The position numbers and the translations under genes are program-made. From Octopus vulgaris (taxonomy: Eukaryota): a DNA stretch of 64,000 nucleotides. Positions 2,418 through 57,157 of this stretch are shown piece after piece (positions within the stretch are counted from its first letter, which is position 1; each line of letters opens with the position of its first letter). Location: NCBI GenBank assembly GCA_951406725.2, contig OX597835.1, positions 37,014,001 to 37,078,000 of the forward strand, read 5' to 3'. The notes below the pieces were generated by a model, which searched no databases, was not told where the DNA came from, and saw only the letters and a program-made list of their open reading frames with translations.

Positions 2418-2464
<47 letters not shown>

Positions 2465-2798: not shown

Positions 2799-2833
<35 letters not shown>

Positions 2834-3114
2834 GCGAGAATGAAGCAACAAGAATGGATAGGTTTTTAGTACAATCGTTTCATACAAGGACAGGTTTTAT
2901 TAAAAGTTGCAAAAATTACAGCATATAAACGTGTCCCGTACTCATCAGCTAAAATACATGTGAGTTCTTTAGACATCAGAGAACTCACATGTATTTTAGC
3001 TGATGAGTACGGGACACGTTTATATGCTGTAATTTTTGCAACTTTTAATAAAACCTGTCCTTGTATGAAACGATTGTACTAAAAACCTATCCATTCTTGT
3101 TGCTTCATTCTCGC
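2834..3114. repeat. Perfect fold-back palindrome, 135-bp arms with 11-nt spacer, inserted in (TA)n
   Basis: 2834-2968 is the reverse complement of 2980-3114. The non-duplicated part continues to ~3233. Confidence 0.9.
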
Positions 3115-3231
3115 TTATAATCACCCCACATTACTGTATTGTTAAATCAGTATAGTTTTTTTTGGTGCATCTAAGTTAGGTACCATATTCAAGTAAATTC
3201 ATTTAAATTAACTTGAATCTTTATTGCTTTT

Positions 3232-3283
<52 letters not shown>

Positions 3284-3969
3284 TATATAAGTACTTGGTT
3301 TACAAAGAATAAGTCCTGGAGTCGATTGCTCGACTAAAGACGGTGCTCCGTCATGGCCGCAGCCAAATGACTGAAACAAGTAAAAGAGCGAGCGTAAAGA
3401 GTATATATATATATATATATATATAGGTTAGATAAAATTTGTTTGTGACATATTTCAACTGCAGTTACCATGGAGACAGTGTGCGGCGCAGCAGAACTGA
3501 ACTCGAAACCTTGAGCTTCTCAACTACACTGGCTTTTACCATTTTATTTTCAACTGGTGCAATTTATTTCATTTTGTCCGACCAACGAAAAACTGTCCTG
3601 GTTCCTCTCCACACACACAAACACAACATCGCTGCCCTGTCCTACAAAAGAATGCTTGGAAAGTTTTAAAACGTTTAATCTGAGACCTTCGCCGGATATT
3701 GTAGACGTATTAAGTTTCTGCTGTCGTCCTCCTATTAACACCCGTATGTATTGCTAGTGACGTATATACCCGGGCTATTTGTACTTTCATCACGTACTTG
3801 TGTGTCAGTATTTACTTGTGGGAAGTGTTGAATACCCTAAACTGGTTACAGCCGACTAAACGCATTCCGGGTGAACATCAACGCGTGTAAGAATATATGT
3901 CCGCTGTTTATATACATGTTATACACCCCACTTCTAAAGCAGATGGATATTGATATAGGTGAGAAAACA

Positions 3970-4035
<66 letters not shown>

Positions 4036-4673
4036 GTCATAATATACGGGTTCAAGTAATCCCAGTAATACAAAAATAAACTCCTTACCAACCACATGGT
4101 TCCAGGTTCAGTCCCACTGCGTGGCATTTTGGGCATGTGTCTTCTACTATAGCCCCGGGTCGACCAATGCCTTGTGAGTGGATTTGGTAGACAGAAACTG
4201 AAAGAAGCCTGTCGTATATATGTATGTGTGTCTGTGTTTGTCCCGCTAGCATTGCTTGACAACCGATGGTGGTGTGTTTACGTCTCCTTCACTTAGCGGT
4301 TCGGCAAAAGAAACCGTCAGAATAAGTACTGGGCTTACAAAGAATAAGTCCTGGGGTCGATTTGCTCGACTAAAGGCGGTGCTCCAGCATGGCCGCAGTC
4401 AAATGACTGAAACAAGTAAAAGAGTAAAGAGTAATGTATCATTCTACAAAACAAAATATATAGTCTGTGCTATGTAGTGGGACTGAACCCAGAACCGTGT
4501 GGTTGGGAACCAAGCTTCTTACCACACATTACACAAATATTCATATACACATGTCGAACTTCTATACAGTTTCTTCACCCTCAAAGTATTGGTCGGCCCT
4601 GAGCTGTAGTAGAAGGCGCTTGCCCAAGTATTTGGCAAAATATAGTTTGATGAAATTTTATGCAGCACGGATT

Positions 4674-4724
4674 TTTGTCAGTGATCAGGTCGCGGTCTTA
4701 AAGCGACGAAAATATTTTGACAAA
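4674..4724 (+). ncRNA. Type-I hammerhead-ribozyme-like motif with G3-C8 core variant
   Basis: TTTGTCA-GTGATCA-G-GTCGC(N9)GCGAC-GAA-AATATT-T-TGACAAA: 7-bp stem I, 5-bp stem II and palindromic stem III. Confidence 0.5.
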
Positions 4725-5020
4725 TTAAACTTAAATGTTAAAGTGTGTTTCTTAAATGGCTTACAAACACCTTCCACGCTGCAATTGAAATTTTATTTAT
4801 TTATTTTTTTTAATGTTACAGAGGTTTAAAGTTTGACTTTTTCTCCAGTCAGGAAACAAGATTTGGAAGCTATCATTTTGTGCGTGACATCACGTATTGT
4901 CAACATTTAAACAAATGAAATATTGGCAGGATTCTGCTTTACGCACGCTATATAACCCCCTCATAGCTTTTTTAGTTTGGGAATTTTCAGAAAATTTTTG
5001 TGCATTGGTATTCTGCATAG

Positions 5021-5426
5021 GGCGCAGGAGTGGCTGTGTGGTAAGTAGCTTGCTTACCAACCACACGGTTCCGGGTTCAGTCCCACTGCGTGGCATCTTG
5101 GGCAAGTGTCTTCTGCTATAGCCTCGGGCCGACCAATGCCTTATGAGTGGATTTGGTAGATGGAAACTGAAAGAAGCCTGTCGTATATATGTATATATAT
5201 ATGCATATGTGTGTGTGTGTGTATGTGTTTGTCCCCCCAACATCGCTTCACAACCGATGCTGGTGTGTTTACGTACCCGTCACTTAGCGGTTCGGCAAAA
5301 GAGACCGATAGAATAAGTACTGGGCTTACAAAGAGTAAGTCCCGGGGTCGATTTGCTCGACTAAAGGCGGTGCTCCAGCATGGCCGCAGTCAAATGACTG
5401 AAACAAGTAAAAGAGTAAAAAGAGTA
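5021..5426 (+). mobile_element. Full-length SINE family A (~400 bp)
   Basis: GGCGCAGGAGTGGCTGTGTGG head, internal (TA/TG)n, tail GACTGAAACAAGTAAAAGAGTAAAAAGAG. Confidence 0.85.
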
Positions 5427-5769
5427 TAGGGGAATTCATACGATTGTGAGAAAGCTTATATCGCATGTATTTTAGGCATTTAATAAGCGACAAAAAGAAC
5501 GCATGGAAAGAACTTGGTATCATCTTGGCTTGTTAGTATGGAAACAGGCACCTATATGTCTAGCTTTCCATTGGATAAATTTACCCAAACTTTGTAGACT
5601 TTAAGAGCTATTAACTCTTTATTGATTTACGGCGAACATGAATTTCATGTCAATGATTACTTTACGAAACTACACAAATACACCAAATATGAAATCAATT
5701 GGAACAAAAATTGAAGAAATTGAAAAATGGCAACCAAACAGACAAGATCCGCTGTTGTTGTGGTTAAGA

Positions 5770-6900
5770 GGCTCCTTTCAGTGTTCCTCGACGAGATCGT
5801 CAATGTCCCTATCAACCTCAAGGCCCATGGACTTGCCAAGAGATAATATCTCCTCGACTACAGATGTCTCAGACTCAAACTCCTAGAGGTCTCTTTCGGA
5901 TACGCAGCCAGGCCACAATTTCCTCCATGTAGAATTCTGCGTTCTCCTCATTACACTCTGTCGGGCTATGTCGATGATTTTCAGGCAGTTAACAATGTTG
6001 TGGTGCTCCTTCCAAAATTCACGAAAGGTTAAATTCATATTTTCTGTGACTTCAAAGCACCGACGAAACAGGTGCTTGGTGTACAATTTTTATCACCTGC
6101 TGGTCTATGGGTTGCAAGATAGGAGTGGTGTTGCGTGAAAGGTGCAGAACTTTTATGAATTTAAATTCGTCCAGAATATCATTTTCGAAATAATTAGAAG
6201 GGTGAGCAGGAGCATTGTCGAGGAGGGCCTTGGAAGGAAGATCTTTTCACTGCTGTTCCGAAAACAAGGTCGACCCACTCAGTAAAGAAATGTCTGGTGA
6301 CCCAGGCTTTAACGTTTGCCCTCCACATGACCTGCAGGCTTTCGGAACAAGGAGCGGCTTAATCCTTCAAGTCTCTACTCGCATTGACACAAAGGACGAG
6401 AGTTAACCTATATTTCACAGGCTTATGGCCTAGCATTTTCTTCTGCAGTTATGTAGCTTCTTTGGGGATTTTTTTTTTTAATAAATAGAGGCCAGTTTCA
6501 TCACATTTGAATACCTGTTGTGCGATGTACCCCTCGGCTGCGATGAGCTGACGGAATTCACGCACGAAATCCCCAGCTGCCTTCGTGTCGGAACTCGCTG
6601 CTTCTCCATACCTGACGATGCTATGAACACCTGTCCTCTTCTTGAAATTATCAAACCAGCTGCGACTGGCCTTAAATACGTCTGCTGAGGTGTCTCCTCT
6701 GTCGATGTTCCAGGGTTCTGCTTCAGAAGATCCACATCCAGCGCTCGTGCTTTCTCGCAGATGATGGGTCTCTGTAATCGTGTCCCCCTGTGAGTTACTT
6801 CACGTTGATCCACAGGAGAAGCAATTTTTCCATCTCTTCGTGGACAGATGTGCGTTACTTAGGGAGCTTGGAGACAACCTTTGCTGTTGTAACTGCCGTT
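5770..6900 (-). pseudogene. Degenerate pogo/Tigger-like (CENP-B/DDE_1) transposase
   Basis: Frame-shifted minus-strand peptides IICEKARAL, WFDNFKKR, QQVFKCDETGL, LLDNAPAHP, TTPILQPIDQQVI, LTFREFWK and WRKLWP. Confidence 0.85.
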
Positions 6901-6964
6901 CAAAAGGAAAAAGATCCACAATTAGACCCAGCTAATTGAAGAAATCCGCTCTTGAGCTATTCAG

Positions 6965-6995
<31 letters not shown>

Positions 6996-6996
<1 letters not shown>

Positions 6997-8260
6997 GAGG
7001 GGCGTTCAATAAGTAATGCCCCTGACCCACTTCCCATAGCAGTAGAGCAACGAAACTTGGCACAGTTATTAGTCTTTTTCTACATAGGAACCACCCAGAG
7101 TTACGCATTTCTCCCATCGTTTGATGCGGCTCTGGAGACCGTTTTTGTAGAAGAACCCAGCTTGGTCCTCCAACCTCAACGTGACTTCAGAAATCAAGGC
7201 TGCATCATCTGGGAAACGCTTTCCTTTCAAAAACAACTTCATGATTGGGAAGAGGTGAAAATCAGAGGGTGCAAGGAGTTCATAGCCATACGCATGTGCT
7301 TCTGATCTGGCGACAAGCGAGTTGTGGACCGGAGCGTTGTCCTGCAGGAGGAGGATGCCTTTGCTGATCTTGCCCCGCCTCTTGATTTTGATAACTTCTC
7401 TTAATTTCCTCAAAAGTGAAGCATAATAGGCTCCTGCAATTGTGGTACCCTTTGCCAGGAAATCTGTCATCACTACTCCGTCCTGGTCCCAGAAGACTGT
7501 GAGCATGACCTTGCCAGCGGAGGGCTGCACCCTTGCCTTCTTTGGAGGGGGTGAGTCACGGTGCTTCCACTGCATTGACTGGGATTTGGTCTCTGGATCA
7601 TCGTGATGGACCCAGGTTTCATCCTGTGTAATCAGTCTTTTGAAAAATTTTGACTCATCTTCTTGGCACATCTCCAAATTCACCCTCGAGCACTGGACGC
7701 GTTCTTGCTTCTGGAAAGGCGTGAGCAACCTGGGAATCCATCTGGCAGACACCTTTTGCATATGCAAATGGTCATGAATGATAGTTTCCACGGACCCGGT
7801 ACTAATCTTGACCTCATGGGCTATTTGGCGAATAATTATGCGTCGATCTTCCAAAATGGCAGCCTCAGCTTGACGGACAGATGCCTCATCAATGGCAGAA
7901 GGGGGCGACCAGATCTGGGAGCTGTTTCCACAGAGTTCCGACCATGTTTGAATTCACGATGCCAGCGTTTTACAAGGTCATATGATGGGGCATCATCACC
8001 ATAAGTTACTTTCATTTCATCAAAAGTCTCCCGTGGTGTGCGTCCTTTCAAATACAAAAACCGGATCACCGCTCGACACTCAACAGGCTCCATTTCACAC
8101 TTGACTCGGTTCAAACACCTGTAAATCAGAAACCACAATTAATTCAGAGCTGTAATTTGCCACTTACTCTATAGAGATATAAATGATTGCACATGCAAAA
8201 TTTCAGCTAGATCAAACAACTGCAAGTGGGTCAGAGGCATTACTTATTGAACGTCCCTCG
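6996..8260 (-). mobile_element. Full-length mariner transposon (irritans-like), TA-flanked, ~37-bp TIRs
   Basis: TIR CGAGGGGCGTTCAATAAGTAATGCCCCTGACCCACTT at both ends with 2 mismatches, embedded in (TA)n; 1265 bp. Confidence 0.92.
7069..8093 (-). pseudogene. Mariner transposase with frameshift (~7900) and deletion of the YSPDL motif
   Basis: MEPVECRAVIRFL...RSGRP then WIPRLL, ITQDETW, LLQDNAP, APSDFHLF. The usual PHPPYSPDL segment is missing before APSD. Confidence 0.9.
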
Positions 8261-9859
8261 TATATATATATATATTATATACACTATTCGGGTAAATCCA
8301 TTCTGCCAACTGAAATACTAGCAGAATCACTGTAAATGTTTCTGCTCTGTAGATTTAAACTATGTTAAATCATTCTGAATGTCCCTTATTTTGAAATTCA
8401 TGAATTCGTCTGATACTGTTATTTATCGACCCCGAAAGGATGAAATGCAAAGTTGACCTCGGCGGAATTTGAACTCAGAACGTAACTACAGACGAAATAC
8501 CTATTTCTTTACTACCTACATGGGGCTAAACACAGAGAGGACAAACGGATTAAGTAACTGGTACTTATTTAATCAACCTCGAAAGGATGGAAGGCAAAGT
8601 CGACCTCGGCGGAATGGACGTCATTGATTGGTTGAAATTGAAGAAAAAAAAACAACAAATATCTTACAAACTATAGAATTTTCTCAATAAAGCCAAGAGA
8701 AAAAGATGTTTTATAAACACATTCTAACAGTATACGAAGTTTAAAAGTGTTTAATTACCTAGAAATTATGTTAAAAACTGCCGTTCAAACCGAAAAGATC
8801 CAAGATGCGAACACACAATTGCCCATTGTGTCGCTCAGTGATACTGAACTGGAACCCACGTGGTTTTTAAACGAGCTTCTTAAACACAGAAGCCGACGGG
8901 CCGTACCTGAGACAGAACACCCGTTCTCAATTTATTTGCAATAAATATACGGAAAACTCTTCCTTCTCTTCGCCATTATTATTATTATTACATATCCCGC
9001 ATTCTATACAGACAATACACAATATGTATGTGACATGCAGACGAGAAAGTGCGCTGCCGACCCACATTACACAGACAGACGAGCAGGCAGCAGCCAGGAA
9101 AGACAAGGCATGGCCTATTTGGTCATTTAAATGGCGGTAGTAATATATACACACACATATATATATATATATGTATGTGTGTGTTTATCACTAAACCGGG
9201 GTGTTGCTGACTGTTTGTAATTATTGAGACTAAACCCACTACCACCCTTCACTTTCTGTCGCTAAGAGATATATGTTATGTGCCGTAGTATATTATAAAA
9301 GCCGTAACAGACTCGGAATAAGTAAAACTGGGTCATCTGTCCCTTGTTAAGTTAAAAAGTTTTTGTGTTTAATAAAGAAGCACTCTGCGGTGACGGAGGA
9401 GGTGTGGAAGGCGGGCTTGGTCACACAGATATGTTCTTTCTTTCTTTCTTTTTCTCTCTTTCTTTCTCTCTCTCTCTTTCTCTAGTAAACCACTCACGCG
9501 CTCGCGCACTCACACATTTAAGCACGTATATTTCATGCATGAAATGTATGTTACGTATGGGTAAACGCTTTCATGCCTTGCTGTGCCATCTGCAGATTTT
9601 CGGAGAAGTTATGTGTGTGTGTGTTTTCCCTTTTATTTGTGTTTCCGTCATTTGACTGCGACCATGCTGGAGCATCATCACCTCAAGGGTGGGGGGTTTA
9701 GTCGAAGAAATCGACCTCCAGGACTTATTCTTTGTAAGCTTAGTACTTATTCCATCGCCGTCTGTTTTCCGAACTACTAAGTTACGGGGACATAAAGACA
9801 CTAACATCGGTTGTCAAACGACGGCGGGAGTACAAACACAGAAACACGCACACAAATGT

Positions 9860-10730
<871 letters not shown>

Positions 10731-10813
10731 AATTGCAGCGTGGAAGATGTTTGTAAGCCATTTAAGAACACTCAAAAACCGTTAATTTCACTTCAACATT
10801 TAAATTTTATTTG

Positions 10814-10860
10814 TGTCAAAATACTTTCATCGCTTTGAAACCGCGACCTGTTCATTGACA
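10814..10860 (-). ncRNA. Degenerate hammerhead motif, same repeat family as 4674-4724
   Basis: TGTCA-ATGAACA-G-GTCGC...GCGAT-GAAAGTATTT-TGACA. The flank GCAGCGTGGAAG is shared with the ~4780 copy. Confidence 0.35.
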
Positions 10861-12079
10861 AAACTTCCTTATGCACGACGAGCTTCTTTCAGTTTCCGCT
10901 TACTAAATCCACTCGCAAAGCTTTGGTCGGCCTGAGGCTATAGCAGAGCACATTTGCCCAAGGTGCCCCGCAGTAGTGTAACTGCCCGGAACCATGTGGG
11001 AAGCAAGCTTCTTACCACCACACCGCTACGCCTTGGCAAAAAAAATTCTGCTTATTTTCATTTCATATTACCTTTTCTATGAATTTTGGACGCTTTCATT
11101 ATTGGATTAAACATACCCTCTGTCTTTCTCTCTCTCTCTGGAATGGGTCTTGGTATTCAGTTTTTCTTTCCTCATGTTCGAAACGTTGGAGCTTTCCCGT
11201 TCCGAACAGACGTACCCAACTTATATAATTTTACCCCAAAATAATATTATAGCTGAGAAGCAACATTTGTGACTCGCGGACGGAGTTTTCGTGCAAAATT
11301 CAGTTTGATTTGTGCATTTTGTACGAAATTTGGTCCTCAAGTCGCTCCTGTAACTTCTCACCTATAATAATTGTTCCAAATTTTGACAGCAATTTTAGGG
11401 GTAGAAGGTAAGTTGATTACATCGAACAACCACCCCTGAACTCCACTTTATCAACTCCGAAAGGACTAAAGCATATATAATAATAATAATTCTTTCTGCA
11501 ATATGCACAAGGTCTGAAATTTTGGGAGATGGAGCTGGTCAGTTGTATTGACTCTAATGTTCGACTGGTTGTTATTTCGGCGATCCCGAAAGGATGAAAG
11601 TTAAAATGGACCCGAACGGAATTTGAACCCAGAACGTAAAGACACATGAAATAGCGCCAAGCATTTTGTTCGGCGTGCTAACGATTCTGCCAGTTCGCCG
11701 CTTAACAACCAAACACGCTCATTTGTAATAAACAGTTCTCTCCTCCCTTTAACACACACACACACGCACCGGTTTGGTATGACAGAAAAAATAGTACTCA
11801 ATACATGACTGTATGTATGTATGTATTCGAAACACGCATTTAGTCGAAACAGGGGCAGCTGATGTAGGGGAATGTTCCTTGTATTGTTTGTCTTGTACTC
11901 TGTTTTTTCGTTGTTAAAAAAAAAAAGTCCGTTTCCTTGTTTGATTTTATGGTTTCGTTTCTCGTTGTCTTCTACGTTTATTTGTGGTGTCCTGTACTCA
12001 TATATGCATGTATATATACATATAGATGTAGGTATGTATGCATATGTTTTATTTTATTAAATTGTTAGTATATATATAT

Positions 12080-12142
<63 letters not shown>

Positions 12143-13302
12143 CATACACACATACAAACCTTAAGCATTGACACAGTTTTAACATAGACAGAATGCCAAA
12201 CATCGTCTCCTTGTTTCCCCTCCTATTTTTCCCCCGGTAGCTTAAATGACATAACCCCCCACTCACTCACTCTCTCTCTTTCTTTCTTTCTCTCTCTCTT
12301 TTTCTTTCTCTCTCTCTCCGCTCTCATTTGTATTTTATCGCCCTCTCACTTTCCCTCCTACCGTTTCCTTCCACTTCTACACTGCTCTCTATCACTCCAC
12401 CCTCTCTCTCTCTTTCTTTCTTTCTTTCTATCTCTCTCTCTCTCAGACCCTTCGCTCATATTTCCCTCCCACCCTCATAACCACATCTCCTCCTCCTCTT
12501 CCTCTCTCTACGGTTCTCCTTCTCTTTCTCACACATGTCTATGTCTTATTACATGAAATTTACCAAAATTCTGTCACTTGGCAATTCCGGTATGGCTTTC
12601 TTTAAACATGTTTTCTGGACTACTTTGAAAGTTTTTTCTCTCTCCCCTTCCATCTATATTTGTCCCCCCGCTTTGTTGATCGTTCTATTGTCTAGATTTT
12701 GTAAGGTAAAGTTCCGTTGAGGATGGAACCTGTCCGGCCTTGCACTCTTAGTCTACAACATATCTTGCTTTTTTTCTGTGATCGACTCCAGTTCTTTGTC
12801 CTAAACTGGGGTTCTATGTTCATTGTCATCATTCCACTTACTGTGTCTGTCTATCTGTTTGTCTTTGTGTGTGTGTGTGTATGCATAGACATATTTATAT
12901 ATATATAAACATGTTTTATTCGAATTGACATTATTATAAGTTTAACCGACGCTAAAAGCACGTCCGATCGCACTTAAAGGACATCATATATACCCACATG
13001 CATATATATATATATATATATAATTAGGGTTCAGCAAAATTAAAAAAAAAAATACTTTACCACACACCGAACTGTTAGAAATAGCAGCCAAAGAATTTAG
13101 CAATTTCCTCTACTATAAGAAGAGTCTCCCAGACAATGTGTGTGTATATATATACATATACACAAATTGAGATAGGGGTTGTAAATGCAACCCTCTATGG
13201 GATAACATATATCCAATATACTGCTAGTGAATTACCCAACAAAGTTAATACATAAATGTTAATGATTGCGATGCAATCAATTCATTTACTGTATTATATG
13301 GG

Positions 13303-13359
<57 letters not shown>

Positions 13360-14046
13360 GCGCGCCCTCATATAAAACACGTTTTGACTGTATTGTTAAT
13401 CTTTCTGTTGTACACTTCGTTCATATTCAAATGCTGTATTTTTTTGTTTCTCGATTTGTAAACACACTAACACACACACATATATATACACATACACGAG
13501 CCGACGAGAGCGCGCCAACTACGACGTTCGAATTGCTAGAAACAACAGCCCAAATCCCTTTCAGCTAACAAGCATACACAAACACACACATCCTCCCTTC
13601 CCCCCTCTACCATCTTCAAACCGGAATAATAAGGATAACGACCCCTATAGATACCCACTAAAGACAAAACACGAATGATCAACCATTCTACTGGAATGCC
13701 TTCGGCTATAGATTTCCACAATCGGAATTGGCCTTGGGCTTAAACACAGATAACATATTTAGACATATTGTTTATAGATGGTTCGGCTCGGTTTGGTCTG
13801 GAAGAAGGGATCTTCGGCGTCCTTGACCTTCGCAGCCCCCTTTTTAAAGCCGGCGCGACAGACACGGTGTAATACTCCAAATCAGTTGTATTGGGGATTT
13901 GGTTGCAGAAAAAAAGGTGTGCACGAAACGGTTCTTGCAGCCTGACCTTCTTGGGGAGAAAGAACCAGAATAATAATGTATCTGTATATCTATCTGTATA
14001 TTTATGTTTCTGTGTATATTTGTTTTTGTATGTATTTATGTATGTA

Positions 14047-14089
<43 letters not shown>

Positions 14090-14140
14090 GGTAAGATAAC
14101 AAAAGAATGAAAGAGACCTCAATATATTGTAAATAGAGGA

Positions 14141-14177
<37 letters not shown>

Positions 14178-14902
14178 TCCCGCGCTTGTTAGCCCAAGTA
14201 TATATTGATCGAACGGTGTGTATATTTTTGCTATACTGTAAACTTATATTCGGTTACACACAGACGCACACACACACACGCACATACACACACACGCGCA
14301 CACGCATCCGCGCGCACTTTACCTCTCGCACACACGCATGCACTTCTAAAGAACACTTGAACTTGTCACGTGACCGTGTTATGAAACTGTGTTTTGGAAA
14401 AAAAACAAAAAACCGTTCGTAACATAATTAGTTGCGTATTTGCATGTTTGCGCTTGTTTTTGCCTGTGACTGTGCTTAACCCGAGAAGGTCTGCGATGCT
14501 GTTTAACTCTGAGTCAACCTCTACCGAGCAGGCCTGGCTATGTATGATCAAAAGCTGTCTATCCCGATCATATTTTGTCTTTTATTCGAGGGCGATTTGG
14601 TTGCTATTTTTAGCGATCTCATCACAGACTGCCTCGTTGGATCCTGTACCTTGGTTTTTGTTTGTACATGCATTATATCTTATTTAAGTAAACATTAGTA
14701 TCTGTCTCCTCATCTCTCTCTCATGCTTGTTTGTTGTATTTGTATCTTTCTGCTGGTTCCTGTCATTGACCTACAGCTAAAAGTACTATAAATCGATCAT
14801 ATCGACTCCATTTGATAGATTATTCCAGTCTGCTATTGATTTTACCGGTGTGTAGTTAGAGAATACCCTCATTATCTTTCGAAATCACACACTGAATTGC
14901 AA

Positions 14903-16074: not shown

Positions 16075-16820
16075 AGAGAGAATGATGGACGAAGTTGTGA
16101 AGTAAGGAGGAGGAGGAGGGAAAAGGTGGAGAGAGAGAGGGGGAGAGAAGAAAATATAGAGGTGACAGACATGGGTGGAGGAGTGTGAGATGGTGATGAG
16201 GCAGTGAAAGCTTGAGAGAGGGGGAGATGTAAAAGGCAGATGTAGACATCAGAGAGGAGTTATATGAACTGATGTTGTGGGGAAGTATGGATATATATAG
16301 AGAGGGAGGGAGTAAAGACAGTGATAAAGAGAGAGTAAAGACATTGCTAGAGAGGGAAAGATAGAATAAAAGCATTGAGGAAGAAAGTAAAGATATTGAT
16401 GGGAAAAGAGAGAGACAGAGAGAAAGAAAGAAGTTGATGGAGAGAGGTGATAGTAAAGAAGCTGATGATAGTAAGATATTGATGATGGTGGTATAGAGAG
16501 AGACAGTAAAGATGTTGAGAGAGAGAGAGAGAGTGTGTGTAAAGATATTGAGAGGGAGAGAGAGAGTGTGTGTAAAGCTATTGAGAGAGAAAGAGTAAAG
16601 ATATTGAGAGAGAGAGAGAGAGTAACGGTTGCTAGAGAGAGAGAGAATAAAAACATTGAAGAAGAGAGTAAAGATAGAGATGGGAAGAGAGAGAGAGAGA
16701 CAAAGAAAGTAAAGACATTGCTAGGGAGAAAGAAAGTGATTGAAGGAGAGAGAGTAAAGGTACTGATGATGAGAAAAAAGTAAAGATATTGATGAGGGGA
16801 GAGAGAGAGAGAGAGAGATT
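16075..16820. repeat. Purine-rich (GA)n minisatellite-like tract
   Basis: Repeated AGAGTAAAGATATTGAGAGAG-type units. Confidence 0.85.
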
Positions 16821-32717: not shown

Positions 32718-33114
32718 TTAAACAATTCATTCAGTAAATTTAGAGTTCATTCACTTCATCAGGCATTGTAATTTGATTCACAGTCAAGTTTTATGTATTT
32801 GATAAATATATTTGATGCCTCACTCTCCATGTCTCTATTTCTGTGTCTCTTTGGCTATCTCTCCCACCCTCTCTCTACCTTCTATCTCTTTCTCCTCTCT
32901 ACTCTTTCTCTCTCTCTCTCTCATCCTCTTATCTCTTCTTTGTCTCTCCTTCATATCTTCCTCTCCTCTGTCTTCAATGCTGTCTCTCTCTCTCTCTCCT
33001 TGTCCTTTCCTCTTTCTCTGTCCGTCTATCCACTGTCCCTTTCTCGATGCTTCCTCTCCCTTCCCCACCCAGTTCCATTGACCAATTGACCAAACTTTCT
33101 ATTATCTCTGACAG

Positions 33115-33204
33115 AGTGGCTAGCCCAGAATGGATATCTGGACAAGATATGGTATTTGAAAGTCCACATCCTCAGTTAAACACTCGCTCTAGGAAAACAC
33201 TCAG
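33115..33204 (+). CDS. Probable internal coding exon of the CaaX-protein gene (phase 2-2)
   Basis: Pyrimidine tract plus TCTCTGACAG acceptor and CAG|GTGAGA donor. 90 nt open (VASPEWISGQDMVFESPHPQLNTRSRKTL); splices in frame (AG+T = Ser) to 38596. Confidence 0.6.
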
Positions 33205-35449: not shown

Positions 35450-35522
35450 TGCTGAAACCTGGGATCGAACCAGGGACCTTTAGATCTCCAGTCTAACGCT
35501 CTCCCGACTGAGCTATTTAGGC
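35450..35522 (-). tRNA. tRNA-Phe-derived gene with anticodon GGA; probable pseudogene
   Basis: GCCTAAATAGCTCAGTCGGGAGAGCGTTAGACT-GGA-GATCTAAAGGTCCCTGGTTCGATCCCAGGTTTCAGCA, 73 nt. It has 5 substitutions versus the metazoan tRNA-Phe(GAA) sequence, including two acceptor-stem mismatches. Confidence 0.85.
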
Positions 35523-38465: not shown

Positions 38466-38595
38466 CTCTATCTATCAATTGATTCTATCATTCACCTGCT
38501 AATTTTTTTATTTCTTTGTTGAGTTGTTTGTTTATTTCCAATACCTGTGTTACATAAAAATTAACAATGATATTTTTTTCTTTTTCTTCTTGCAG

Positions 38596-41500
38596 TATTG
38601 CTGCTGTGACCCGTTCTTCAACGAAAACTTCTCTCATCAAAGACAATTCCATTCCAGTCGCTGATTTTTACTCTGAACCGATATTTTCGCCGCCGGGTGT
38701 CAAGACCCGACTACGTCGTCAATCAATGTATGTGCAAAAGCAAGTCCCAAATGTCTCGTTTTCAGTCACAAAACAGGATGTGACATTTTCTGAAACGAGC
38801 TCGTTGACTTCTGCCACGGTGACCAGCGTCTCGAGTCGCACCGTAACAACTGTCGAGCAGACAAAGTCATCTTCGGAGATGTCTGCTTTGGTCGGCAATG
38901 ACCAGGCAGTTGATGGACTGGCAGGCGAGAAAGAGACAATCAGTGAAGAAATCAGCAACATCATCAATAACCTTCGCGACTCGAATCGCAAGCGCAAGTC
39001 TGATGTGCAGACAGTGGAGACTTCTGACGTAAAAGAAAAAGTGCTGAAACCCTCAAAGACACTGGAAGAAGAGAAATTGTCTCTGGTTAGGAGTTTGTCG
39101 TTGAAGGAGAGGTCCAAAGATGTTTCGACAGCGGAAAATGAAAACGTATCCGAATCAGTTACTGTGGATATTGTTTCCGAAGAAGCGGAAGACGTTGAAG
39201 TGGAAGACGCTGAAGTGGAAGACGCTGAAGTAGAAGACGTAGAAGAGGTCCCGCCTGAAGTACAAGATGATTCCAGTAAAGCTAAGAAAAGCGCACCACA
39301 GAAGAAGAAGCCGGGAAGAAAAAGCAAGTCTCCCGCTGCTAAGACAAAGACGACCAGGACACGGAAGACAAGTACTTCGAGGACCAAAAGTCAAGAAACT
39401 GATTCAGAAGAAGTAGCAACAGTTGAAGTGGTTGTAGATAGCAGCAAAACTACACCTTCAAAGAAGAAAAGGGGCGCGACACCAGTGAAAGCAAAAGCAA
39501 GCAGTAAAAAAGGGGCAAAGAAAAGTACCACTCCTAAAAGACAAGCAAGTGCACCGAACAAGGAATTGGTCGTGGAAGCCGTTACTCCAGTAAAGAAAGA
39601 AAGGAGATCACGGTCGTTGGGGCCGAAGAGTAAAAAGAAAGTAGAAGAGGTGGCGGCAGACAAACCAGACGAGGATGCCGCTTCAGTTGAAACGAAAGAA
39701 ACATCTAAAAAAGGCTCTCGTTCGCGTAAAGGTACTCCTCAAAAATCTTCTGTAAAAGGCCCACGTAAAAAATCCACTTCGAGGAAATCAACTCCAGTGA
39801 GAAAGGCAACCCCTACGAAAACGCGTACTCCGAGAAAGGGTACTCCATCTAGAGAAAGAAAGGCTACTCCCACAAGAAAGGCCACCCCCACAAGGAAGGC
39901 CACCCCCACAAGAAAGGCCACACCCACAAGAAAGGCCACACCCACAAGGAAGGCCACACCCACAAGAAAGGCAAAGAAAGCCACTCCGTCTAGGGAAGCA
40001 ACTCCTGCCAGAAAATCCAGTACTCCTGTCAGAGAGGCTACTCCTGCTAGAAAATCTGCCACCCCACTTCGAGAAAGTTCTCCTGCTACAAAATCTGCCT
40101 CTCCAGCTCGAGAAAGTACTCCTGCAAGAAAGGCCACTCCTTCTAGAGAAGCAACTCCTGCTAGAAAGGGTACTCCTGCTAGAAAGACTACTGCTACTAG
40201 AAAGGGTACTCCTGCTAGAAAGGGTACTCCTGCTAGAAAGGGTACTCCTACTAGAAAGGCCACACCTTCTCGAGAAACAAGCGTTTCGAGAAAATCGTCT
40301 CCAAAGAAGGTGACCCCTTCTAGGGAGGTTACACCTGCGAGAAAGAGTACTACTAGGAAAGCAACACCTTCTAGGAGAGGATCTCCATCCAAAGCAGTCA
40401 AAGAGAAGACATCACGACGGAAATCTAGTGGAAAGAAGTCACAGAAAACATCACGGTCTCGAAGCAAAACAAAGAGAGTCCACAAGCGTTCTTCTTCAAA
40501 GAAAGCCGACAAGAAGAAAACAGTGCTGGCCACGCAGGAAAAAGAAGAATCCTTGTCTACTGTTGATGGGGCTGAGGAAAAAACAGCACCGCCCCCACAA
40601 AAGACTGCCACCAGTAGCTCTTCTATGTCTACAATAATCACCGGTCTCTTTAAGCATTTCGTCCCAAGCCAGAAAAAGGCAAAAGTAGTTGAGTCCACCA
40701 CAAGCACGGATACCACCACCACCACAACAACAACAGTTGGTGGTTCCATGGCAGCTGAGTCTGAAGTTGATACAGGGGAAGAACTGAGAAGGAAGATACC
40801 GGAGGCAAGAAAACACGCACTGATTTCTTCACCTCTGGATTCCAGCACACCTGATGTTCCCCAGGTTCCTAAAGCATCTTTCGTTAGTAGACTGAGAGAG
40901 ACAGCTTCAAGCCTGTCCCCATTTGCCCTGAGCAGGTCGTTCGAGTATAAGCGTGCTGTTGTAGCATCAGCTAACAACAAGACTGTAGAGATTTCGGAGA
41001 CGATCACACATCCAGGAACGACTGCTGGCAAAGGATTTGATGAGGCTGACCAACCAATGTCAGCAGTTGAAATGACCGCCAATGAAGATACGGAGAGCTC
41101 CACTCCTGCAACAGTTGAAGAGGATGAAAGCGAGCAAAAGCAAGATGAAAAAGTTGTCGACACACGAGAAGTGCATTACGAGTCCCAGGAATCAGAAATG
41201 GATGACGGGTCGATCATTGATAAGCTGGTTCATTATGAGTCCCAGCAGTCTGAGATAGAGGAGGTAGAAGTTGATAATCAGAAAAGTGTTCACTATGAGT
41301 CCCAGCATGACACTGAGGAAGAGTCCCAGGTTGAGACAGAAGATGACTCCCAGGCTGAGGTGGAGAATGAGGTGGAAGAAGAGTCACATGTTGAAGAAGA
41401 AGAAGTGTCACTTGATGTGGTAGGGAAAAAGATCCATGTTGAAGAAGAAGTGTCACTTGATGTGGTAAAGAAAAAGACCCATGTTGAAGAAGAAGAGGAG

Positions 41501-42508
41501 GAAGAAGAAGAAGAAGAGGAGGAGGAAGAGTCACATGATGTGGTGGAGAAAAAGACCTATGTTGAGGAACAAGAGTCCCAAGCTGAGACAGAAGAAGAGT
41601 CCCAGGTCGAGACAGAAGAAGAGTCGCAGGTTGAAACAGAAGAGTCACATGATGTGGTGGAGAAAAAGACCTATATTGAGGAACAAGAGTCCCAGGGCGA
41701 GACAGAAGAGGAGTCCCAGGTCGAGACAGAAGAAGAGTCCCAGATTGAGACAGAGAATGACTCCCAAGTGGAGTCTCAGGTTGAGACAGAAGAAGAGTCT
41801 CAGGTTGAGTCTGGGCAGGAGTCCCAAATTGAAACAGAAAATGAATCCCTGCTTGAGATGGAAAACAAGATAGATGATGGTGCTGCTGAAATATCCAATA
41901 TCACTATGGATACAGAGGAGTTTGTTTCATCCAAAAGAAATGTAACCGTCCACTACGAGTCACAAGAGTCGGAATTGCTCACAGAGGAAGAAGACGATGG
42001 TTCCTGTGTAGTGAATGATGTCGAGGCCTCTGCTGCTATTGCTGATGGTGATAATGTGAAAAAAGTTGAAGAGTCAGATCTCACTGAAGAGGATGTAGAG
42101 AAAGGAAAAGAACATGGTGTTTGTGAATATGTCAAAGAACACCTTATCACAGTCAACAACAAAGGTGAAGAAGAAGAAGAGGAGGAGGAGGAGGAAGAAG
42201 AGGAAGATGTAGGGGGAAGGGTATTGACTAGAAGACAAGCAGCAGCGGCGGCAGCTGCAGCAATGACAGGAACGTCGTTGAGGACAAAAAGAACAACAAC
42301 GACGACGACAACGACAAGAAAATCAGTGCTGGGTAAGAGAGGAGCTGAGAAGCTGCTAGAAGCTACCGACTACGACTTGGAGCCGCCAAAGAAGATCTTC
42401 ACCGAGGTGATGGACGAGGATGAGGCGATGGCTGACAACGATGAGGAGGCGAAGGCCCTCTACGACTCATATTACTCTGGCTACGGATTACGCTGCACCA
42501 TCCTCTGA
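38596..42508 (+). CDS. Terminal exon (~1300 aa) of a disordered protein: basic TPxR/K repeat domain, Glu-rich domain, NLS-like motif and C-terminal CaaX (CTIL)
   Basis: Uninterrupted 3.9-kb ORF, higher GC and free of TEs. TTTTTTTCTTTTTCTTCTTGCAG acceptor at 38595, so the ORF-track Met at 38567 is probably intronic. Ends GYGLRCTIL-TGA. Confidence 0.9.
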
Positions 42509-43089
42509 GAACCCCGTTGCTCCCCTGCTGTTTTGCATCTCAGCTCCCCTAAAGACGCTGTTGGTAGAAACTGCCTTCCCCTCTCTCTCATCTGATGCCT
42601 TGTTTCTCAGAGGTACCAATTTCCATAAAATTCATTTTTATCCTTTTGTCCCTCTCACTTGACAGACCCAAGGCAGCTGCTGCATCATAAAGCTTCCTCT
42701 CCCTTTTCTTTATTGTAATTAAAAATTTTTATTTTTAGATGCAAGTGCGTGCACACATATGTAGGGTTTAATTTGTCATCATTCCTTACCCTTTCTCCAT
42801 GAAATGCCCTACGGCCACTACCATCGTGCACACGCTACACAAGCACATACTCATATGCACACATGGCCCGTGTATACAAATATGCACATGTGTGCATATA
42901 CAAATATTCATAATTTGACATGTTCATCGTGTGCTTGCTTGCATGGATGCACATATGCACTTAGGTGCACATACAAATATAGATATAGTTACACTCCAAC
43001 ATGCACACACATATACACGTTTGAATTAACATATACACCTATGGATACATTCATGCATATACAAGTTCTCATAGTTTGATACGTTTGTG

Positions 43090-43525
43090 AAAGCTCACTA
43101 ACATGCATGCACATGTGCACATATGCACTCATACAAATATAAATACAGCCACTCCTTAACATGTCCACACACACACACACACACATGCGTGTATTCTTTA
43201 AGATGTATACATACACATATGCATGCATACACAAACATGGATACTTCAACATGGTCACACCTCAACATGAACACACACACACATTCTTTAACACATGCTG
43301 TGCATTTAAACACCCATATAATTATATAGTCACATCTCAACATGTGCACATGCATGCATATACGAACATGCATACTTCAACATGAACACACACATTCTTT
43401 AACACATACATGCATGCTTGCTCGCATACAATTATAAATACACCCATACAATTATGAATACAGTCACATCTCAACATGTGCACACATGCATGCATGTACA
43501 AACATGCATACTCCAACATGGTCAA
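43090..43525. repeat. Degenerate CA-rich minisatellite (~125-bp iterations)
   Basis: Recurring CTCAACATGTGCACATGCATGCAT...ATACTTCAACATG. Confidence 0.65.
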
Positions 43526-44464
43526 GCATATTTGCTGACATGCACGCACTTAAGCGCACATACGATTATTATACAGTTACACCTCAACGTGTACGTACAG
43601 ACACGATGTACTCAGCCACGTAAATACATGCATTTTTTTAGACACAGAAACATTATACACACAGCAAGCTGTGTGTATACTTCACTATACTCATTATTCC
43701 TTCCTCAATTTACATTGCAGCATCCTTTAACAATAAACATCCCTGAGTGATGAGGGAGTTTTGAGGCCCCTCACCCCCCAGCCAGCTTTAGGGTCTGCCT
43801 GTTTTTTTTTTGTTTTTTTTTTTCGCCCTCCACCTCTCTCTGCTCGCCTTCTCATATCTCCTCTTGAAATGGTGCCTGCTGGCCATTTCGGCATTTCACA
43901 CACGTGTGGATATCATCAGAATGCGCCAGAAAGACATTTTTATGAAAAAAACTTTTTTTTTTTTTGGTGTTTCTTTCTTTTACTTTTTTTTTTCTCTCCC
44001 ATTTTTGCGGGGAGGGAGGGGGGAAGGAAGTATCCTGGACAACCGAAACAAAAACAAGGAACGGCTACGAGAAAGTTTTCATCATTGTTACCATTTATTC
44101 TCTTCCTTGCTGTTGTCATTACTAACACTACTACCACAACTACCACCAACCACCACCACTACTACTACTACTACTGATGCCACCACTATCATTGACAACA
44201 TTAACTACATTAATACCATTGACATGATCACTAAAGCAAATCATATATACACATATATATACACATACACTCACACATATATGTATTTGTATATATGTGT
44301 ATGTGTACATATATATATTTTTATATACGTGTGTGTGTGTACATATATGTATGTGAACATGTATACTTGTATATATATATATGTGTGTGTGTATGTGCAC
44401 ATGTGTATTTGCATATATGTGCACACACATACACATATATACATACATACATTCTTACATATAT

Positions 44465-45840: not shown

Positions 45841-45870
45841 TATATATATATATACATATATATACATACA

Positions 45871-46117
45871 TATATTAGAAGAAATGAGGTAAGAAGAAGA
45901 TCGGATGGTTTTTATTTATTTATATATTACATTTTTTATATATATATCATATCACTTAGATCATTAGCGCTTTCACCCATTCTAGTGGGGTTTTCAAATC
46001 AAACTGAATGGGAGAAAGCACTAATGATCTAAGTGATATGATATATATATAAAAAATGTAATATATAAATAAATAAAAACCATCCGATCTTCTTCTTACC
46101 TCATTTCTTCTAATATA
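45871..46117. repeat. Fold-back inverted repeat, ~112-bp arms, 23-nt spacer
   Basis: 45871-45982 versus 46006-46117, two mismatches. Confidence 0.9.
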
Positions 46118-46877
46118 TTATACCTGTACATCATCTCCAAACCTTCCAATACATACATATATATATACATGCATATATGTAACACACACATTTGCATACG
46201 CATACATGAATGTATATATGTACGTCTGTATGAGTTTGAATATGTATATATACACATATACCCCTACGCATTAATACCAATCTTTCTGCTTTGGTTAAAG
46301 CTTTTGAATTTGAATTTTTTTTTTATTGCTTATTTTGTCGTCTAATCCATGTGTTCCTTCCACTCGGTACTACTTTACCTCTACCACCACCACAACCACC
46401 ACCGCATACTTACATATAAAATACAGTGTATCATTCGCTCTGCTGAACACTTGGGGGCATGCGGTCAATAATACACTAAGTACGGCAGCCAAGATGTCTC
46501 TGCCATTCTTGGGTAAGGGACGTAACTCTGCTTGACTTACGACAACCGCTTTGCTTCATGTCTGTTATTCACGAAGTTAGTGTGTGTGTATGTATATATA
46601 TATATACATATAAAAGTATGTATATATATATGTATGTATATATACATATATAAAAGTATGTATATATATATGTATGTATATATACATATGTATATGTATG
46701 TATATACATATGTATAAAGTATGTATATACATATGTAAGTATGTATATACATATGTATGTATGTGTATATGTACATATGTATGTATGTGTATATGTACAT
46801 ATGTATGTATATACATACTCATAGACACATACATGCGTATATATTGGCAGATACATATGTAAATAGGCTCACAGAAA

Positions 46878-47675: not shown

Positions 47676-48913
47676 TATACAGCATACAATGAACCAGCTA
47701 CTGCCATCCTTCTGTCTTACCATGTAGGCTAGCAAACAGCAGATAAGTGCCACATGAGTAGTTCAGTGAAACATACTTCTACTTAGAGCCAAGGTGAACT
47801 GTGCACAGTGTTACACCCGATTCTCCATTGATAACTAGAGCAATTGTATTCTGTACCCCATGGAAGCTATTTACACCTGAATGGGGTTGACAGGGTACGA
47901 AACTCTAGTATCCCTTCATGTAGGTATTGTTACGAAATGTACCTTTATAACAGTACTTTCATACTCTCATGGTACTTATATATGGTCACCAAATGCTGTG
48001 AGCAATCAGTGTTTCTGATAATAAACGTGGTCCTTCTGTATTTTGGGGATGTCACAAAATACAAATTTTGCTCCTTGAGGATGTAGTAAGTGTTTTGGGA
48101 TGTGAACAGAAAGTCTGAGTTGGCTTTGGTGTGTGGACATGATACGGTTTGTTATCTTAATACTGATGGAAAACTTTGTACCTGTGAAAGGGATACAGCT
48201 CTCATTTGGTTTTTCTTTCTTATATGATAGCACACATACACACACACGTTATATATATATATATATATATACATGTGTATATACATGCATAAATATATAT
48301 ATATAATGCGTATATACATGCATAAATATATATATATAATGCGTATATACATGCATAAATATATATATAATGCGTATATACATGCATAGACATATATATA
48401 TGATGCGTATATACATGCATAAATATATATATGCGTATATACATGCATAAATATATATATATATATATATATAATGTGTGTATACATACATACATAAATA
48501 TATACATGCATATATGTGTATATACATGCATAAATATATATATATATATAATGTGTATTTACATGCATAAATACATATATACATGATGTGTGTATATATA
48601 TCCATACACACACATATACATAAATGTGTATATATATGTGTGTGTGTGTGTGCATTTATGGATAAGTTATATTTTTTTTATTCAGAAACTTCATTGTTTG
48701 CATTTGTTTTTATTATTTAAAAATAATTTTTTTGCTTTCCACTTGGAGCTAGGAACTAAATATATACATTGATGTATGTGTGCATAATATATTTCTATAT
48801 ATATATATACACACACACACACACTCAAACATATCTATATATATGCATGTGCATATGTATTCATGCATATACACACATACACATGAACATTTGTATGTAT
48901 TATATATACATAT

Positions 48914-49284
48914 ACAACTTATAAATAAGGGCAAACGAAAAAAATTCTAATGCCAAATATGCCAAAAATTGGACATAATGTCCATAACCATATAATTTTT
49001 GTCCAGTACGCACGCTACTCGAAAAGGGTCAACAGAAATCTCTAAAAAATTCCATTGTTACCATATCGGACTGATTTCAGGGTTAGTTCAAAAAGAACCC
49101 TCCCTTCATGAGTGATACATATCGGTCCGATATGGTATTAATAGAATTTTTTAGACATTTCTGTCGACCTTTTTCGAGTAGCGTGCGTACTGGACAAAAA
49201 TTTTATGGTAAATGGACATTAGGTCCAATTTTCGGAAATATTTGGCATTAGAATGTTTTTCGTTTGCCCTTATTTATAAGTTGT
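48914..49284. mobile_element. MITE with ~160-bp TIRs
   Basis: ACAACTTATAAATAAGGGCAAACGAAAAA... versus ...TTTTTCGTTTGCCCTTATTTATAAGTTGT; ~45-bp spacer. Confidence 0.8.
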
Positions 49285-49741
49285 TTATAATTTAACCTTT
49301 AAAGGTATTTTTAATATGCTGATAAAATTGATAAAATTTTTTTCGAAAGATTTTTATCCTACATTAAATATATATATATGTATATATGTATGTATATGTA
49401 TGAACATGTACATGCACAAATGTTTAAAAGCAGACAAGTTCTTCACCTCATTCTTTTTATAACAACAAGACTAGGCGTTGTAGTGTTCATGTTTCTCACA
49501 GATTTATCACCCAAATTCAAAACCTCTTATTAATAACATCGGCAACAGTAATAAAATATTTTATCCAATATTGCCAGTTTGTCTTTTCTTTTTTTTCATC
49601 TATTTATGCATTTATTTTTATTTGTTGTTATTATCTTTATTCCTTTTGCTGTAATCATTCTACCAGAACACATTCTGCCATTTTTACTGCTCCCGCCTCC
49701 TGCAATCTCTCCAGTCACTTAGAAATAACTGATGACAACAT

Positions 49742-55061: not shown

Positions 55062-55064
55062 TTT

Positions 55065-57157
55065 TCGTCCTAAAAAACTTTGTATGGATTGAATGGTTAC
55101 CTCTATGGAAATATATACACACACATTATACATACATGTGTGTATAGATGAATATATAAATACATTTAAATATCTATATACACTTTTGGGCGATCTTTCT
55201 GCTACCTGGATATACTTTAGATCTTATATTCTTCCAATTCGTCCTAAATAACTTTGTATGGAGTGAATGGTTACCTTTATGGAAATATATACACACACAT
55301 TATACATACATGTGTGTATAGATGAATATATAAATACATTTAAATATCTATATACACTTTTGGGCGATCTTTCTGCTACTTGGATATACTTTAGATCTTA
55401 TATTCGTCCAATTCGTCCTAAATAACTTTGTATGGAGTGAATGGTTACCTCTATGGAAATATATACACACACATTATACATACATGTGTGTATAGATGAA
55501 TATATAAATACATTTAAATATCTATATACACTTTTGTGGGATCTTTCTGCTACTTGGATATACTTTAGATCTTATATTCTTCCAATTCGTCCTAAATAAC
55601 TTTGTATGGAGTGAATGGTTACCTTTATGGAAATATATACACACACATTATACATACATGTGTGTATAGATGAATATATAAATACATTTAAATATCTATA
55701 TACACTTTTGGGCAATCTTTCTGCTACCTGGATATACTTTAGATCTTATATTCGTCCAATTCGTCCTAAATAACTTTGTATGGAGTGAATGGTTACCTCT
55801 ATGGAAATAGATACACACACATTATACATACATGTGTGTATAGATGAATATATAAATACATTTAAATATCTATATACACTTTTGGGCGATCTTTCTGCTA
55901 CCTGGATATACTTTAGATCTTATATTTGTCCAATTCGTCCTAAATAACTTTGTATGGAGTGAATGGTTACCTTTATGGAAATATATACACACACATTATA
56001 CATACATGTGTGTATAGATGAATATATAAATACATTTAAATATCTATATACACTTTTGGGCGATCTTTCTGCTACTTGGATATACTTTAGATCTTATATT
56101 CGTCCAATTCGTCCTAAATAACTTTGTATGGAGTGAATGGTTACCTTTATGGAAATATATACACACACATTATACATACATGTGTGTATAGATGAATATA
56201 TAAATACATTTAAATATCTATATACACTTTTGGGCGATCTTTCTGCTACTTGGATATACTTTAGATCTTATATTCGTCCAATTCGTCCTAAATAACTTTG
56301 TATGGAGTGAATGGTTACCTCTATGGAAATATATACACACACATTATACATACATGTGTGTATAGATGAATATATAAATACATTTAAATATCTATATACA
56401 CTTTTGTGGGATCTTTCTGCTACTTGGATATACTTTAGATCTTATATTCTTCCAATTCGTCCTAAATAACTTTGTATGGAGTGAATGGTTACCTTTATGG
56501 AAATATATACACACACATTATACATACATGTGTGTATAGATGAATATATAAATACATTTAAATATCTATATACACTTTTGGGCGATCTTTCTGCTACCTG
56601 GATATACTTTAGATCTTATATTCGTCCAATTCGTCCTAAATAACTTTGTATGGAGTGAATGGTTACCTCTATGGAAATATATACACACACATTATACATA
56701 CATGTGTGTATAGATGAATATATAAATACATTTAAATATCTATATACACTTTTGGGCGATCTTTCTGCTACCTGGATATACTTTAGATCTTATATTTGTC
56801 CAATTCGTCCTAAATAACTTTGTATGGAGTGAATGGTTACCTTTATGGAAATATATACACACACATTATACATACATGTGTGTATAGATGAATATATAAA
56901 TACATTTAAATATCTATATACACTTTTGGGCGATCTTTCTGCTACTTGGATATACTTTAGATCTTATATTCGTCCTAAATAACTTTGTATGGAGTGAATG
57001 GTTACCTCTATGGAAATATATACACACACATTATACATACATGTGAGTATAGATGAATATATAAATACATTTAAATATCTATAAACACTTTTGGGCGATC
57101 TTTCTGCTACTTGGATATACTTTAGATCTTATATTCGTCGTAAATAACTTTGTATGA
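55065..57157. repeat. Satellite array: 10 x 174-bp plus 2 x 165-bp monomers
   Basis: Unit starts at 55065, 55239, 55413, 55587, 55761, 55935, 56109, 56283, 56457, 56631, 56805, 56970 and (partial) 57135. Confidence 0.95.

Follow-up and report, generated by a model that had tools for sequence, protein, structure and literature searches.

A long disordered octopus protein with Thr-Pro repeats, an acidic block and a CTIL end: a candidate prenylated inner-nuclear-membrane protein

Few prenyl-anchored non-lamin nuclear proteins have been described, and proteins are known to reach the inner nuclear membrane by means of a nuclear localization signal (NLS) combined with a terminal CaaX box (PMC2947476; PMC10125929). 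The Drosophila protein Kugelkern (Kuk), a non-lamin protein of 570 amino acids (aa) with an N-terminal helical element, an NLS and a terminal CaaX box, was described in 2010 as the only farnesylated non-lamin nuclear protein then known; in the same paper a GFP-NLS-CaaX construct has an effect on the nuclear membrane, and no evidence that Kuk binds chromatin directly is reported (PMC2947476). B-type and invertebrate lamins likewise have an NLS, cyclin-dependent kinase (CDK) sites and a terminal CaaX box, for which the lamin consensus ends in Met (PMC10125929), and they differ from the protein described below in their coiled-coil rod and lamin tail domain. In all 23 cephalopod species examined only CaaX-less lamins were found, and the mode of their membrane attachment was left open, the authors favoring the lamins' own aromatic ends (PMC10125929). 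Here we describe a gene of Octopus vulgaris that lies in a stretch of 64,000 nt (the window; GenBank assembly GCA_951406725.2, contig OX597835.1, positions 37,014,001 to 37,078,000). Its last coding exon (38596..42508 of the window, + strand, 3,913 nt to the stop codon) encodes a long polypeptide with a basic block of Thr-Pro repeats, an acidic block and a terminal CTIL. By analogy, we tentatively propose that the product may be a prenylated, Kuk-like non-lamin inner-nuclear-membrane protein that binds chromatin under CDK control, a reading to which we give somewhat less than an even chance.

The assignment of 38596..42508 as the last coding exon of a real animal gene was confirmed by its coding properties. 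Residues are numbered from the stop-to-stop frame 38558-42508 (+ strand, P0001), which comprises 1,316 aa. The exon has 1,303 open codons, with no stop in the coding frame and 19–113 stops in the other five frames, and in an order-1 Markov null of the exon DNA the longest open frame had a mean of 115 aa and a maximum of 246 aa (300 runs). It is by far the longest frame in the window; the next, of 478 aa, is antisense to it, and antisense frames over the exon (478 aa or shorter) were taken as shadows of the coding frame. Tandem-repeat periods are divisible by three in 17 of 17 rows within the frame and in 4 of 10 rows outside it. VHYESQ occurs four times, with the peptide unchanged and all six third positions variable (19 synonymous and no non-synonymous single-base codon differences). 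A synonymous-change test is circular for repeat units that are picked by peptide pattern. It is extremely improbable that there is no functional gene here and that a chance or repeat-derived frame happens to end in CTIL: the lack of a homologue in our searches, the low complexity of the sequence and the CaaX-like ends of 0.2–1.2% of spurious frames would fit such an origin, whereas the length of the frame, its frame-keeping repeats, the synonymous bias of VHYESQ and the presence of a splice acceptor, a matching upstream exon and a polyadenylation signal argue against it.

The interval does not encode the full protein. Its 38596 boundary is a splice acceptor, with a polypyrimidine tract and AG immediately 5′, so the interval is the last exon only and its coding part begins within residue 13. 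The best candidate in an exon scan of unmasked upstream DNA is a probable exon of 132 nt (33073..33204, + strand; phase 2 at both ends) that is open and in frame with 38596 and contains an alternative acceptor at 33115 and an in-frame ATG at 33149. Its donor at 33204 scores 7.2 and ranks fifth among 3,986 GT sites; the donor weight matrix, like the hydropathy scales used below, was an approximation. Pfam and PDB searches with this exon gave no domain match (PDB only E > 0.5). A weak candidate for the first coding exon piece, one among several, runs from an ATG to a phase-2 donor (16082..16101, + strand) and joins the later exons in frame; its donor at 16101 scores 3.5 and ranks 13th among the 25 best unmasked donors listed for 13–33 kb. 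Four gene models all read through, yielding 1,310–1,354 aa. Downstream, the probable 3′ untranslated region (42509..43750, + strand) contains ATTAAA at 42718 and AATAAA at 43732, the latter followed by a T-rich stretch.

The distribution of CpG dinucleotides bears on both the start of the gene and its expression. In unmasked DNA the observed/expected (o/e) CpG ratio is 0.82 over 1-14,700 (265 CpG in 7,888) and 0.35 over 14,701-38,595 (144 in 11,471), GpC is unchanged across the same regions, and the drop is abrupt at 16.0 kb (from 0.62–1.41 to 0.11). We infer a gene start near 14–16 kb, which would leave no room for a large folded domain. Just upstream of the drop, in CpG-rich unique DNA at 14366-14445, are a TCACGTGA palindrome and a ATTTGCAT octamer, both possible promoter elements. 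It is quite unlikely that the exon is the tail of a longer known gene, such as an intermediate-filament or scaffold gene whose folded exons would lie 5′ of the window, or that it is an alternative last exon of minor use. The interval does open at a splice acceptor, the gene start is a tentative placement, and small exons are easily missed in DNA of which 47% is masked by self-BLAST. On the other side, the sharp CpG depletion at 16 kb is as expected near a transcription start, the sole strong upstream exon has no domain match, the exon has no intermediate-filament signature, and the long unique open frames upstream are transposase remnants only. In octopus a methylated gene body is a mark of expression across tissues (PMC9476566), and the CpG-depleted introns, which are in keeping with such methylation, mildly suggest broad rather than sperm- or neuron-only expression, a suggestion weakened by the undepleted exon. 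The earlier proposal of a germline/sperm or neuronal role is thus without support, the pattern pointing mildly the opposite way. The supplements of PMC9476566 (12 of 22 files, and file 16 in the rows shown, where the peptide column is empty) contained none of four peptide motifs and were uninformative.

The description of the product as large and mostly disordered was borne out, since 84% of 51-residue windows score as unfolded and no folded domain was found. The top 19-residue hydropathy is 0.67, so no transmembrane segment is expected. AlphaFold2 in single-sequence mode, which is weak without an alignment, gave a mean predicted local distance difference test (pLDDT) score of 39.5 for residues 690–1316 and of 52.2 for residues 14–291. 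No Pfam family matched the whole frame, and the PDB search returned only E > 0.5; when six pieces were searched, the sole Pfam match over its cut-off was DUF963 on the repeat block (21.9 bits against 21), which was rejected as low-complexity. The element that may correspond to the N-terminal helical part of Kuk is a predicted amphipathic helix at residues 116–151 (38903..39010, + strand), with pLDDT values of 81–95 at its core (residues 128–141). It carries the top hydrophobic moment of the protein (0.71), and residues 126–143, a window chosen after the scan, exceed 99.7% of shuffles; the helix is at most a candidate coiled coil. A second amphipathic hydrophobic segment, at residues 688–703 (40619..40666, + strand), includes the most hydrophobic 19-mer, has a moment of 0.56 and is a candidate for membrane or partner binding; it is not helical in the AlphaFold2 model, of which the fragment began at residue 690. 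The adjoining PSQKK (residues 703–707; 40664-40678, + strand) is a string of five letters also present in two octopod lamin C-termini, where it precedes aromatic residues instead of following them as here (Table 3 of PMC10125929); this may be chance.

The basic block comprises residues 241–656 (416 aa; 39278..40525, + strand), includes Lys/Arg/Ser-rich stretches and contains 133 Lys and Arg against 27 Asp and Glu residues (net +106, pI 11.9). Within it, residues 299–612 (39452..40393, + strand) hold 34 [S/T]-P-x-[K/R] motifs, about 30 having been claimed before, mostly as a six-residue repeat of the RKATPT type encoded by 18-nt tandem arrays. Shuffling gave a mean of 2.6 motifs for the whole frame (maximum 9) and 3.9 for the basic region only (maximum 12) in 2,000 shuffles. 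The motif residue is Thr in 31 of 34 and the terminal residue Arg in 26 of 34. The block thus offers dense candidate CDK consensus sites, as predicted. The minor groove of AT-rich DNA is a target of SPKK-type motifs, whose binding is inhibited by phosphorylation (PMC9903204). The predicted likeness to histone H1 holds for the loose motif, which is repeated in a Lys/Arg-rich disordered block as in H1 tails and SPKK sperm histones, and fails for strict SP[KR][KR], found in 1 of the 34. The octopus protein further differs from these histones in its large acidic block and CaaX box, and no globular winged-helix or histone-fold domain was found by Pfam or PDB searches. Identity as a linker or SPKK histone was rejected on these grounds. 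Basic proline-directed repeats, RS-like or acidic tracts and CDK control also occur together in the N-termini of the Lamin B receptor and nucleolin and in the tails of neurofilament-H and squid NF-220, each with defining folded or transmembrane domains not seen in the octopus protein.

A sequence scan found three monopartite NLS matches (at 302, 346 and 706) to the consensus K-K/R-X-K/R (PMC10807245) and one bipartite match to class VI of the six NLS classes tabulated in PMC9699179. The first, KKKR at residues 302–305 (39455..39472, + strand), adjoins the candidate CDK site T299, and the bipartite match spans residues 639–654 (40472..40519, + strand). The better candidates lie in the basic block, so that the prediction of an NLS stands in general and fails for the element originally named, KR-x16-PPKK near the C-terminus. 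There, KR at 1260 and PPKK at 1276 (42335..42394, + strand) are 14 residues apart, 16 being the distance to KK. Of class V, the flanking LGKR supplies just the opening four letters, and the classical bipartite forms KR-X10-12-K(K/R)(K/R) and K(K/R)X(K/R) are not matched, the second cluster being KKIF. Since bipartite linkers of 11–21 aa are tolerated (PMC10807245), spacer length is not what fails. KR-x14-PPKK is a possible weak NLS. The NLS matches and terminal CaaX are shared with lamins, and identity as a lamin was rejected because the two defining domains were sought and not found: no rod was matched by Pfam and the longest predicted helix has 36 residues (residues 292–689 are Pro-rich and basic and were not folded, and upstream exons were not covered), and no Ig-like lamin tail was matched by Pfam or PDB, with no strands predicted.

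The acidic block comprises residues 851–1220 (41108..42217, + strand), matching the predicted ∼370-aa Glu-rich region with 370 aa and 32% Glu (146 Asp and Glu against 23 Lys and Arg, net −123, pI 4.05). Charge-block variance along the protein is 0.057 compared with at most 0.013 in 500 shuffles. A cluster of 16 Ser-Gln (SQ) sites at 41168..41968 (+ strand) includes the four VHYESQ copies and 11 [ED]SQ[VIA]E units; shuffles gave 3.5 ± 1.7 sites (5,000 shuffles), although the sites are not independent because they are repeat copies. Up to seven fall within 50 residues, above the threshold of three in 50 for an S/T-Q cluster domain, and such clusters also arise by chance (PMC3564818). In the same interval, Lys or Arg stands two residues upstream of three of the four VHYESQ copies. 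This resembles a PP1-docking motif with Tyr replacing Phe; a scan of the frame for strict PP1-docking RVxF, KEN and D-box patterns found none.

These opposed blocks, together with the NLS matches and the SQ cluster, would also suit a soluble nucleoplasmic or nucleolar polyampholyte, with a basic block that binds DNA or RNA, an acidic block acting as histone chaperone or auto-inhibitor, and prenylation serving as a shuttling switch or protein-binding handle. The N-terminus of nucleolin, Nopp140 and HMGA are alike in logic. The acidic C-terminus of HMGA2 inhibits its DNA binding (PMC11773362), the partition of Rac1 and of a plant calmodulin between membrane and nucleus depends on their prenylation (PMC8393718), and a protein given CTIL alone can remain in the cytosol and nucleus (PMC8357416). 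Against this, a geranylgeranyl group and a Tyr-rich end would favor membrane binding, and no RNA-binding or chaperone domain was found by Pfam. We regard this soluble alternative as somewhat unlikely.

The frame ends, as predicted, in CTIL and a stop codon (42494-42508), preceded by a Tyr-rich end (42458..42508, + strand; four Tyr in the last 15 residues, with aromatic residues making up 2% of the protein overall) that has no polybasic stretch and no second Cys. Provided that this is the true C-terminus, CTIL has the Cys-a-a-Leu form of a geranylgeranyltransferase I substrate, and the assignment of a Leu-ending CaaX to this enzyme is supported by human OAS1 p46, an unrelated enzyme on Golgi and other endomembranes that has only the tetrapeptide in common with the octopus protein and in which the identical CTIL is necessary and sufficient for geranylgeranylation (PMC8357416). 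On this analogy, the octopus protein is likely to be geranylgeranylated if CTIL is its true end. CaaX-like ends occur in 17 of the 1,344 open frames of at least 30 aa in the window, namely the CTIL frame, 13 frames from one interspersed repeat family and three others, which puts the chance rate at about 0.2–1.2% (3 to 16 of 1,343 other frames). The repeat family, found on both strands at 13 sites in all (e.g. 2153, 5121 and 37001), ends an open frame in a KCLLL-type CaaX-like motif; proteins could acquire a prenylation signal from exonized copies, and the family makes false-positive CaaX calls more frequent in the genome.

Prenylated CaaX proteins reach endomembranes by default (PMC8357416), which would also fit a cytoplasmic, membrane-anchored cytoskeletal spacer whose basic Thr-Pro repeats bind microtubules or neurofilaments, whose acidic block projects, whose lipid inserts into endoplasmic reticulum, Golgi or axolemma, and which is controlled by CDK5 or CDK1. 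The non-canonical C-terminal NLS is in keeping with such a protein. Among known proteins, microtubule-associated proteins (MAPs), neurofilament tails and paralemmin offer the analogy, and proline-directed basic repeats with a Glu-rich block also occur in neurofilament tails and MAPs. We consider this spacer unlikely: no rod, MAP repeat or paralemmin domain was found by Pfam, several NLS matches and an SQ cluster are present, and the CpG pattern is suggestive of broad expression, not of expression limited to neurons.

Under the Kuk-like reading, the gene would encode a stand-alone protein of ∼1,310–1,350 aa without a folded domain, of which the CTIL end is the part seen directly in the sequence. 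As judged from published work on the same tetrapeptide, CTIL would be geranylgeranylated, then clipped and methylated. The NLS motifs of the basic block may bring the protein into the nucleus, where the lipid, with help from an amphipathic helix or the Tyr-rich C-terminus, could enter the inner nuclear membrane; the plasma membrane is disfavored because an acidic stretch directly precedes the CaaX box and there is no polybasic tail. At the opposite end of the long acidic spacer, the +106 block might then hold DNA or chromatin by electrostatic attraction, and the spacer could also fold back and compete for the basic block. Phosphorylation by CDK at as many as 34 Thr/Ser-Pro sites would cancel much of the charge and free chromatin at mitosis, and the SQ cluster may allow ATM/ATR-type control. 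In its mode of action such a protein would resemble Kuk (non-lamin, with helix, NLS and CaaX) to which a binding block akin to an H1 tail has been added, and it would probably act in most cell types. It differs from Kuk in its size (∼1,330 aa), its Leu end and its +106 Thr-Pro and −123 blocks, and its Leu-type CaaX, accompanied by a basic repeat block of its own, is unusual among non-lamin proteins that combine an NLS and a CaaX box. Pfam and homologue searches gave no sequence link to Kuk, which was not compared directly.

Several observations weigh against this proposal. The OAS1 common+CTIL construct is not membrane-located but cytosolic and nuclear (PMC8357416), and Kuk without its coiled coil stays nucleoplasmic (PMC2947476), so an NLS with a CaaX box is not a guaranteed tether. 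The parts of the protein are all common short motifs, its role is inferred and conservation is not yet supported; the same block composition suits cytoskeletal proteins, matches to K-K/R-X-K/R are expected in any Lys-rich sequence, KR-x14-PPKK matches none of NLS classes I–VI when scanned against the table in PMC9699179, and beside the single strict SPKK-type motif just 3 of 34 read [ST]P[KR][KR]. There is a possible donor at 42332, ahead of both KR-PPKK and CTIL; it is the best donor inside the exon and scores just 3.5, compared with 7.2 at 33204, so that loss of CTIL by splicing looks unlikely. CpG is not depleted within the exon (o/e 0.78). In seven non-overlapping repeat arrays defined from DNA (the count omits an eighth interval, 41755-41849), 25 of 56 mismatches are third-position changes (P = 0.051, borderline), and the changed codons are 16 synonymous and 28 non-synonymous (28/44). 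Since the third-position excess is only borderline in these arrays, the repeats evolve fast, and they preserve charge and the Thr-Pro core rather than exact sequence.

No orthologue was found in collections that appear poor in relevant animals, so neither conservation of the CaaX box or of any motif nor the lineage specificity proposed earlier is supported. The three homologue searches covered parts of the protein outside the basic block and residues 657–1099. Word-index searches among proteins of 723–2,303 aa gave 0 of 1,733 candidates for residues 14–210 and 0 of 5,411 for residues 1100–1316, and a search of the last 197 aa with HMMER against 1.84 billion representatives gave one weak hit (E 3e-4, 48% over the stretch that includes the Glu, Ala and Thr runs), at most a possible relative, whose alignment stops before PPKK and CTIL. 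Exact look-up of seven Met-started versions retrieved none, and the ESM Atlas, which contains the sequence from Met57, possibly from the same genome, gave no usable match for the whole protein or residues 1225–1316. In a control, the mariner transposase of the window gave 1,210 hits with best matches of 88% and 95% identity; among the 120 listed, three were from NCBI, one carried a species name (a moth) and none was named as cephalopod. The searched collection thus holds animal transposases and shows no sign of cephalopod reference proteomes, which makes the negatives weak and the control ambiguous. Because no cephalopod name appeared among the control matches listed, the negatives show neither orphan status nor lost conservation. 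In the literature, judged from titles and abstract starts with few subscription journals covered, no description of this kind of protein from a cephalopod was found, and a search for geranylgeranylated non-lamin inner-membrane proteins listed only three reviews, which deal with Rho GTPases and lamins.

The window contains further elements. The mariner-type transposase lies in two overlapping frames at 7069-8138 (− strand; relatives carry Pfam PF01359), with a transposase-like remnant at ∼6449-6858 (− strand). The intron upstream of the last exon contains a tRNA-like gene with anticodon GGA at 35450-35522 (− strand; tRNA-Ser by ARAGORN, 60.6 bits in Rfam). Its body resembles that of eukaryotic tRNA-Phe, so it is perhaps a pseudogene with an altered anticodon. 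Long near-perfect inverted repeats at 2829-3119, 45870-46118 and 48910-49288 (140 nt, 99%; 113 nt, 98%; nested 89 + 51 nt) are perhaps miniature inverted-repeat elements, and a tandem array with a 174-nt unit occupies 55064-57139 (12 copies, 97% matches). Two of the four best donors of the window, 60268 and 62677 (+ strand), lie in unique DNA, and CpG o/e falls to 0.37–0.51 over 58–64 kb; together these probably mark the start of the next gene, the fall paralleling the drop at 16 kb.

A more specific version of the Kuk-like proposal, which we hold to be very unlikely, is that the protein provides in trans the lipid anchor that the nuclear lamina of cephalopods, with its CaaX-less lamins, is missing. 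In that case one geranylgeranylated protein, broadly expressed and not itself a filament protein, would use its amphipathic helices to bind lamin and its Thr-Pro repeats to bind chromatin, and CDK1 would make it release both. If true, the jobs of lamin would be split between two unrelated genes, and in cephalopods the protein would be a concrete candidate for how CaaX-less lamins reach the membrane. If the Kuk-like reading itself is true, chromatin would be tethered in a new way, by a geranylgeranylated protein that carries an H1-like binding block of its own.

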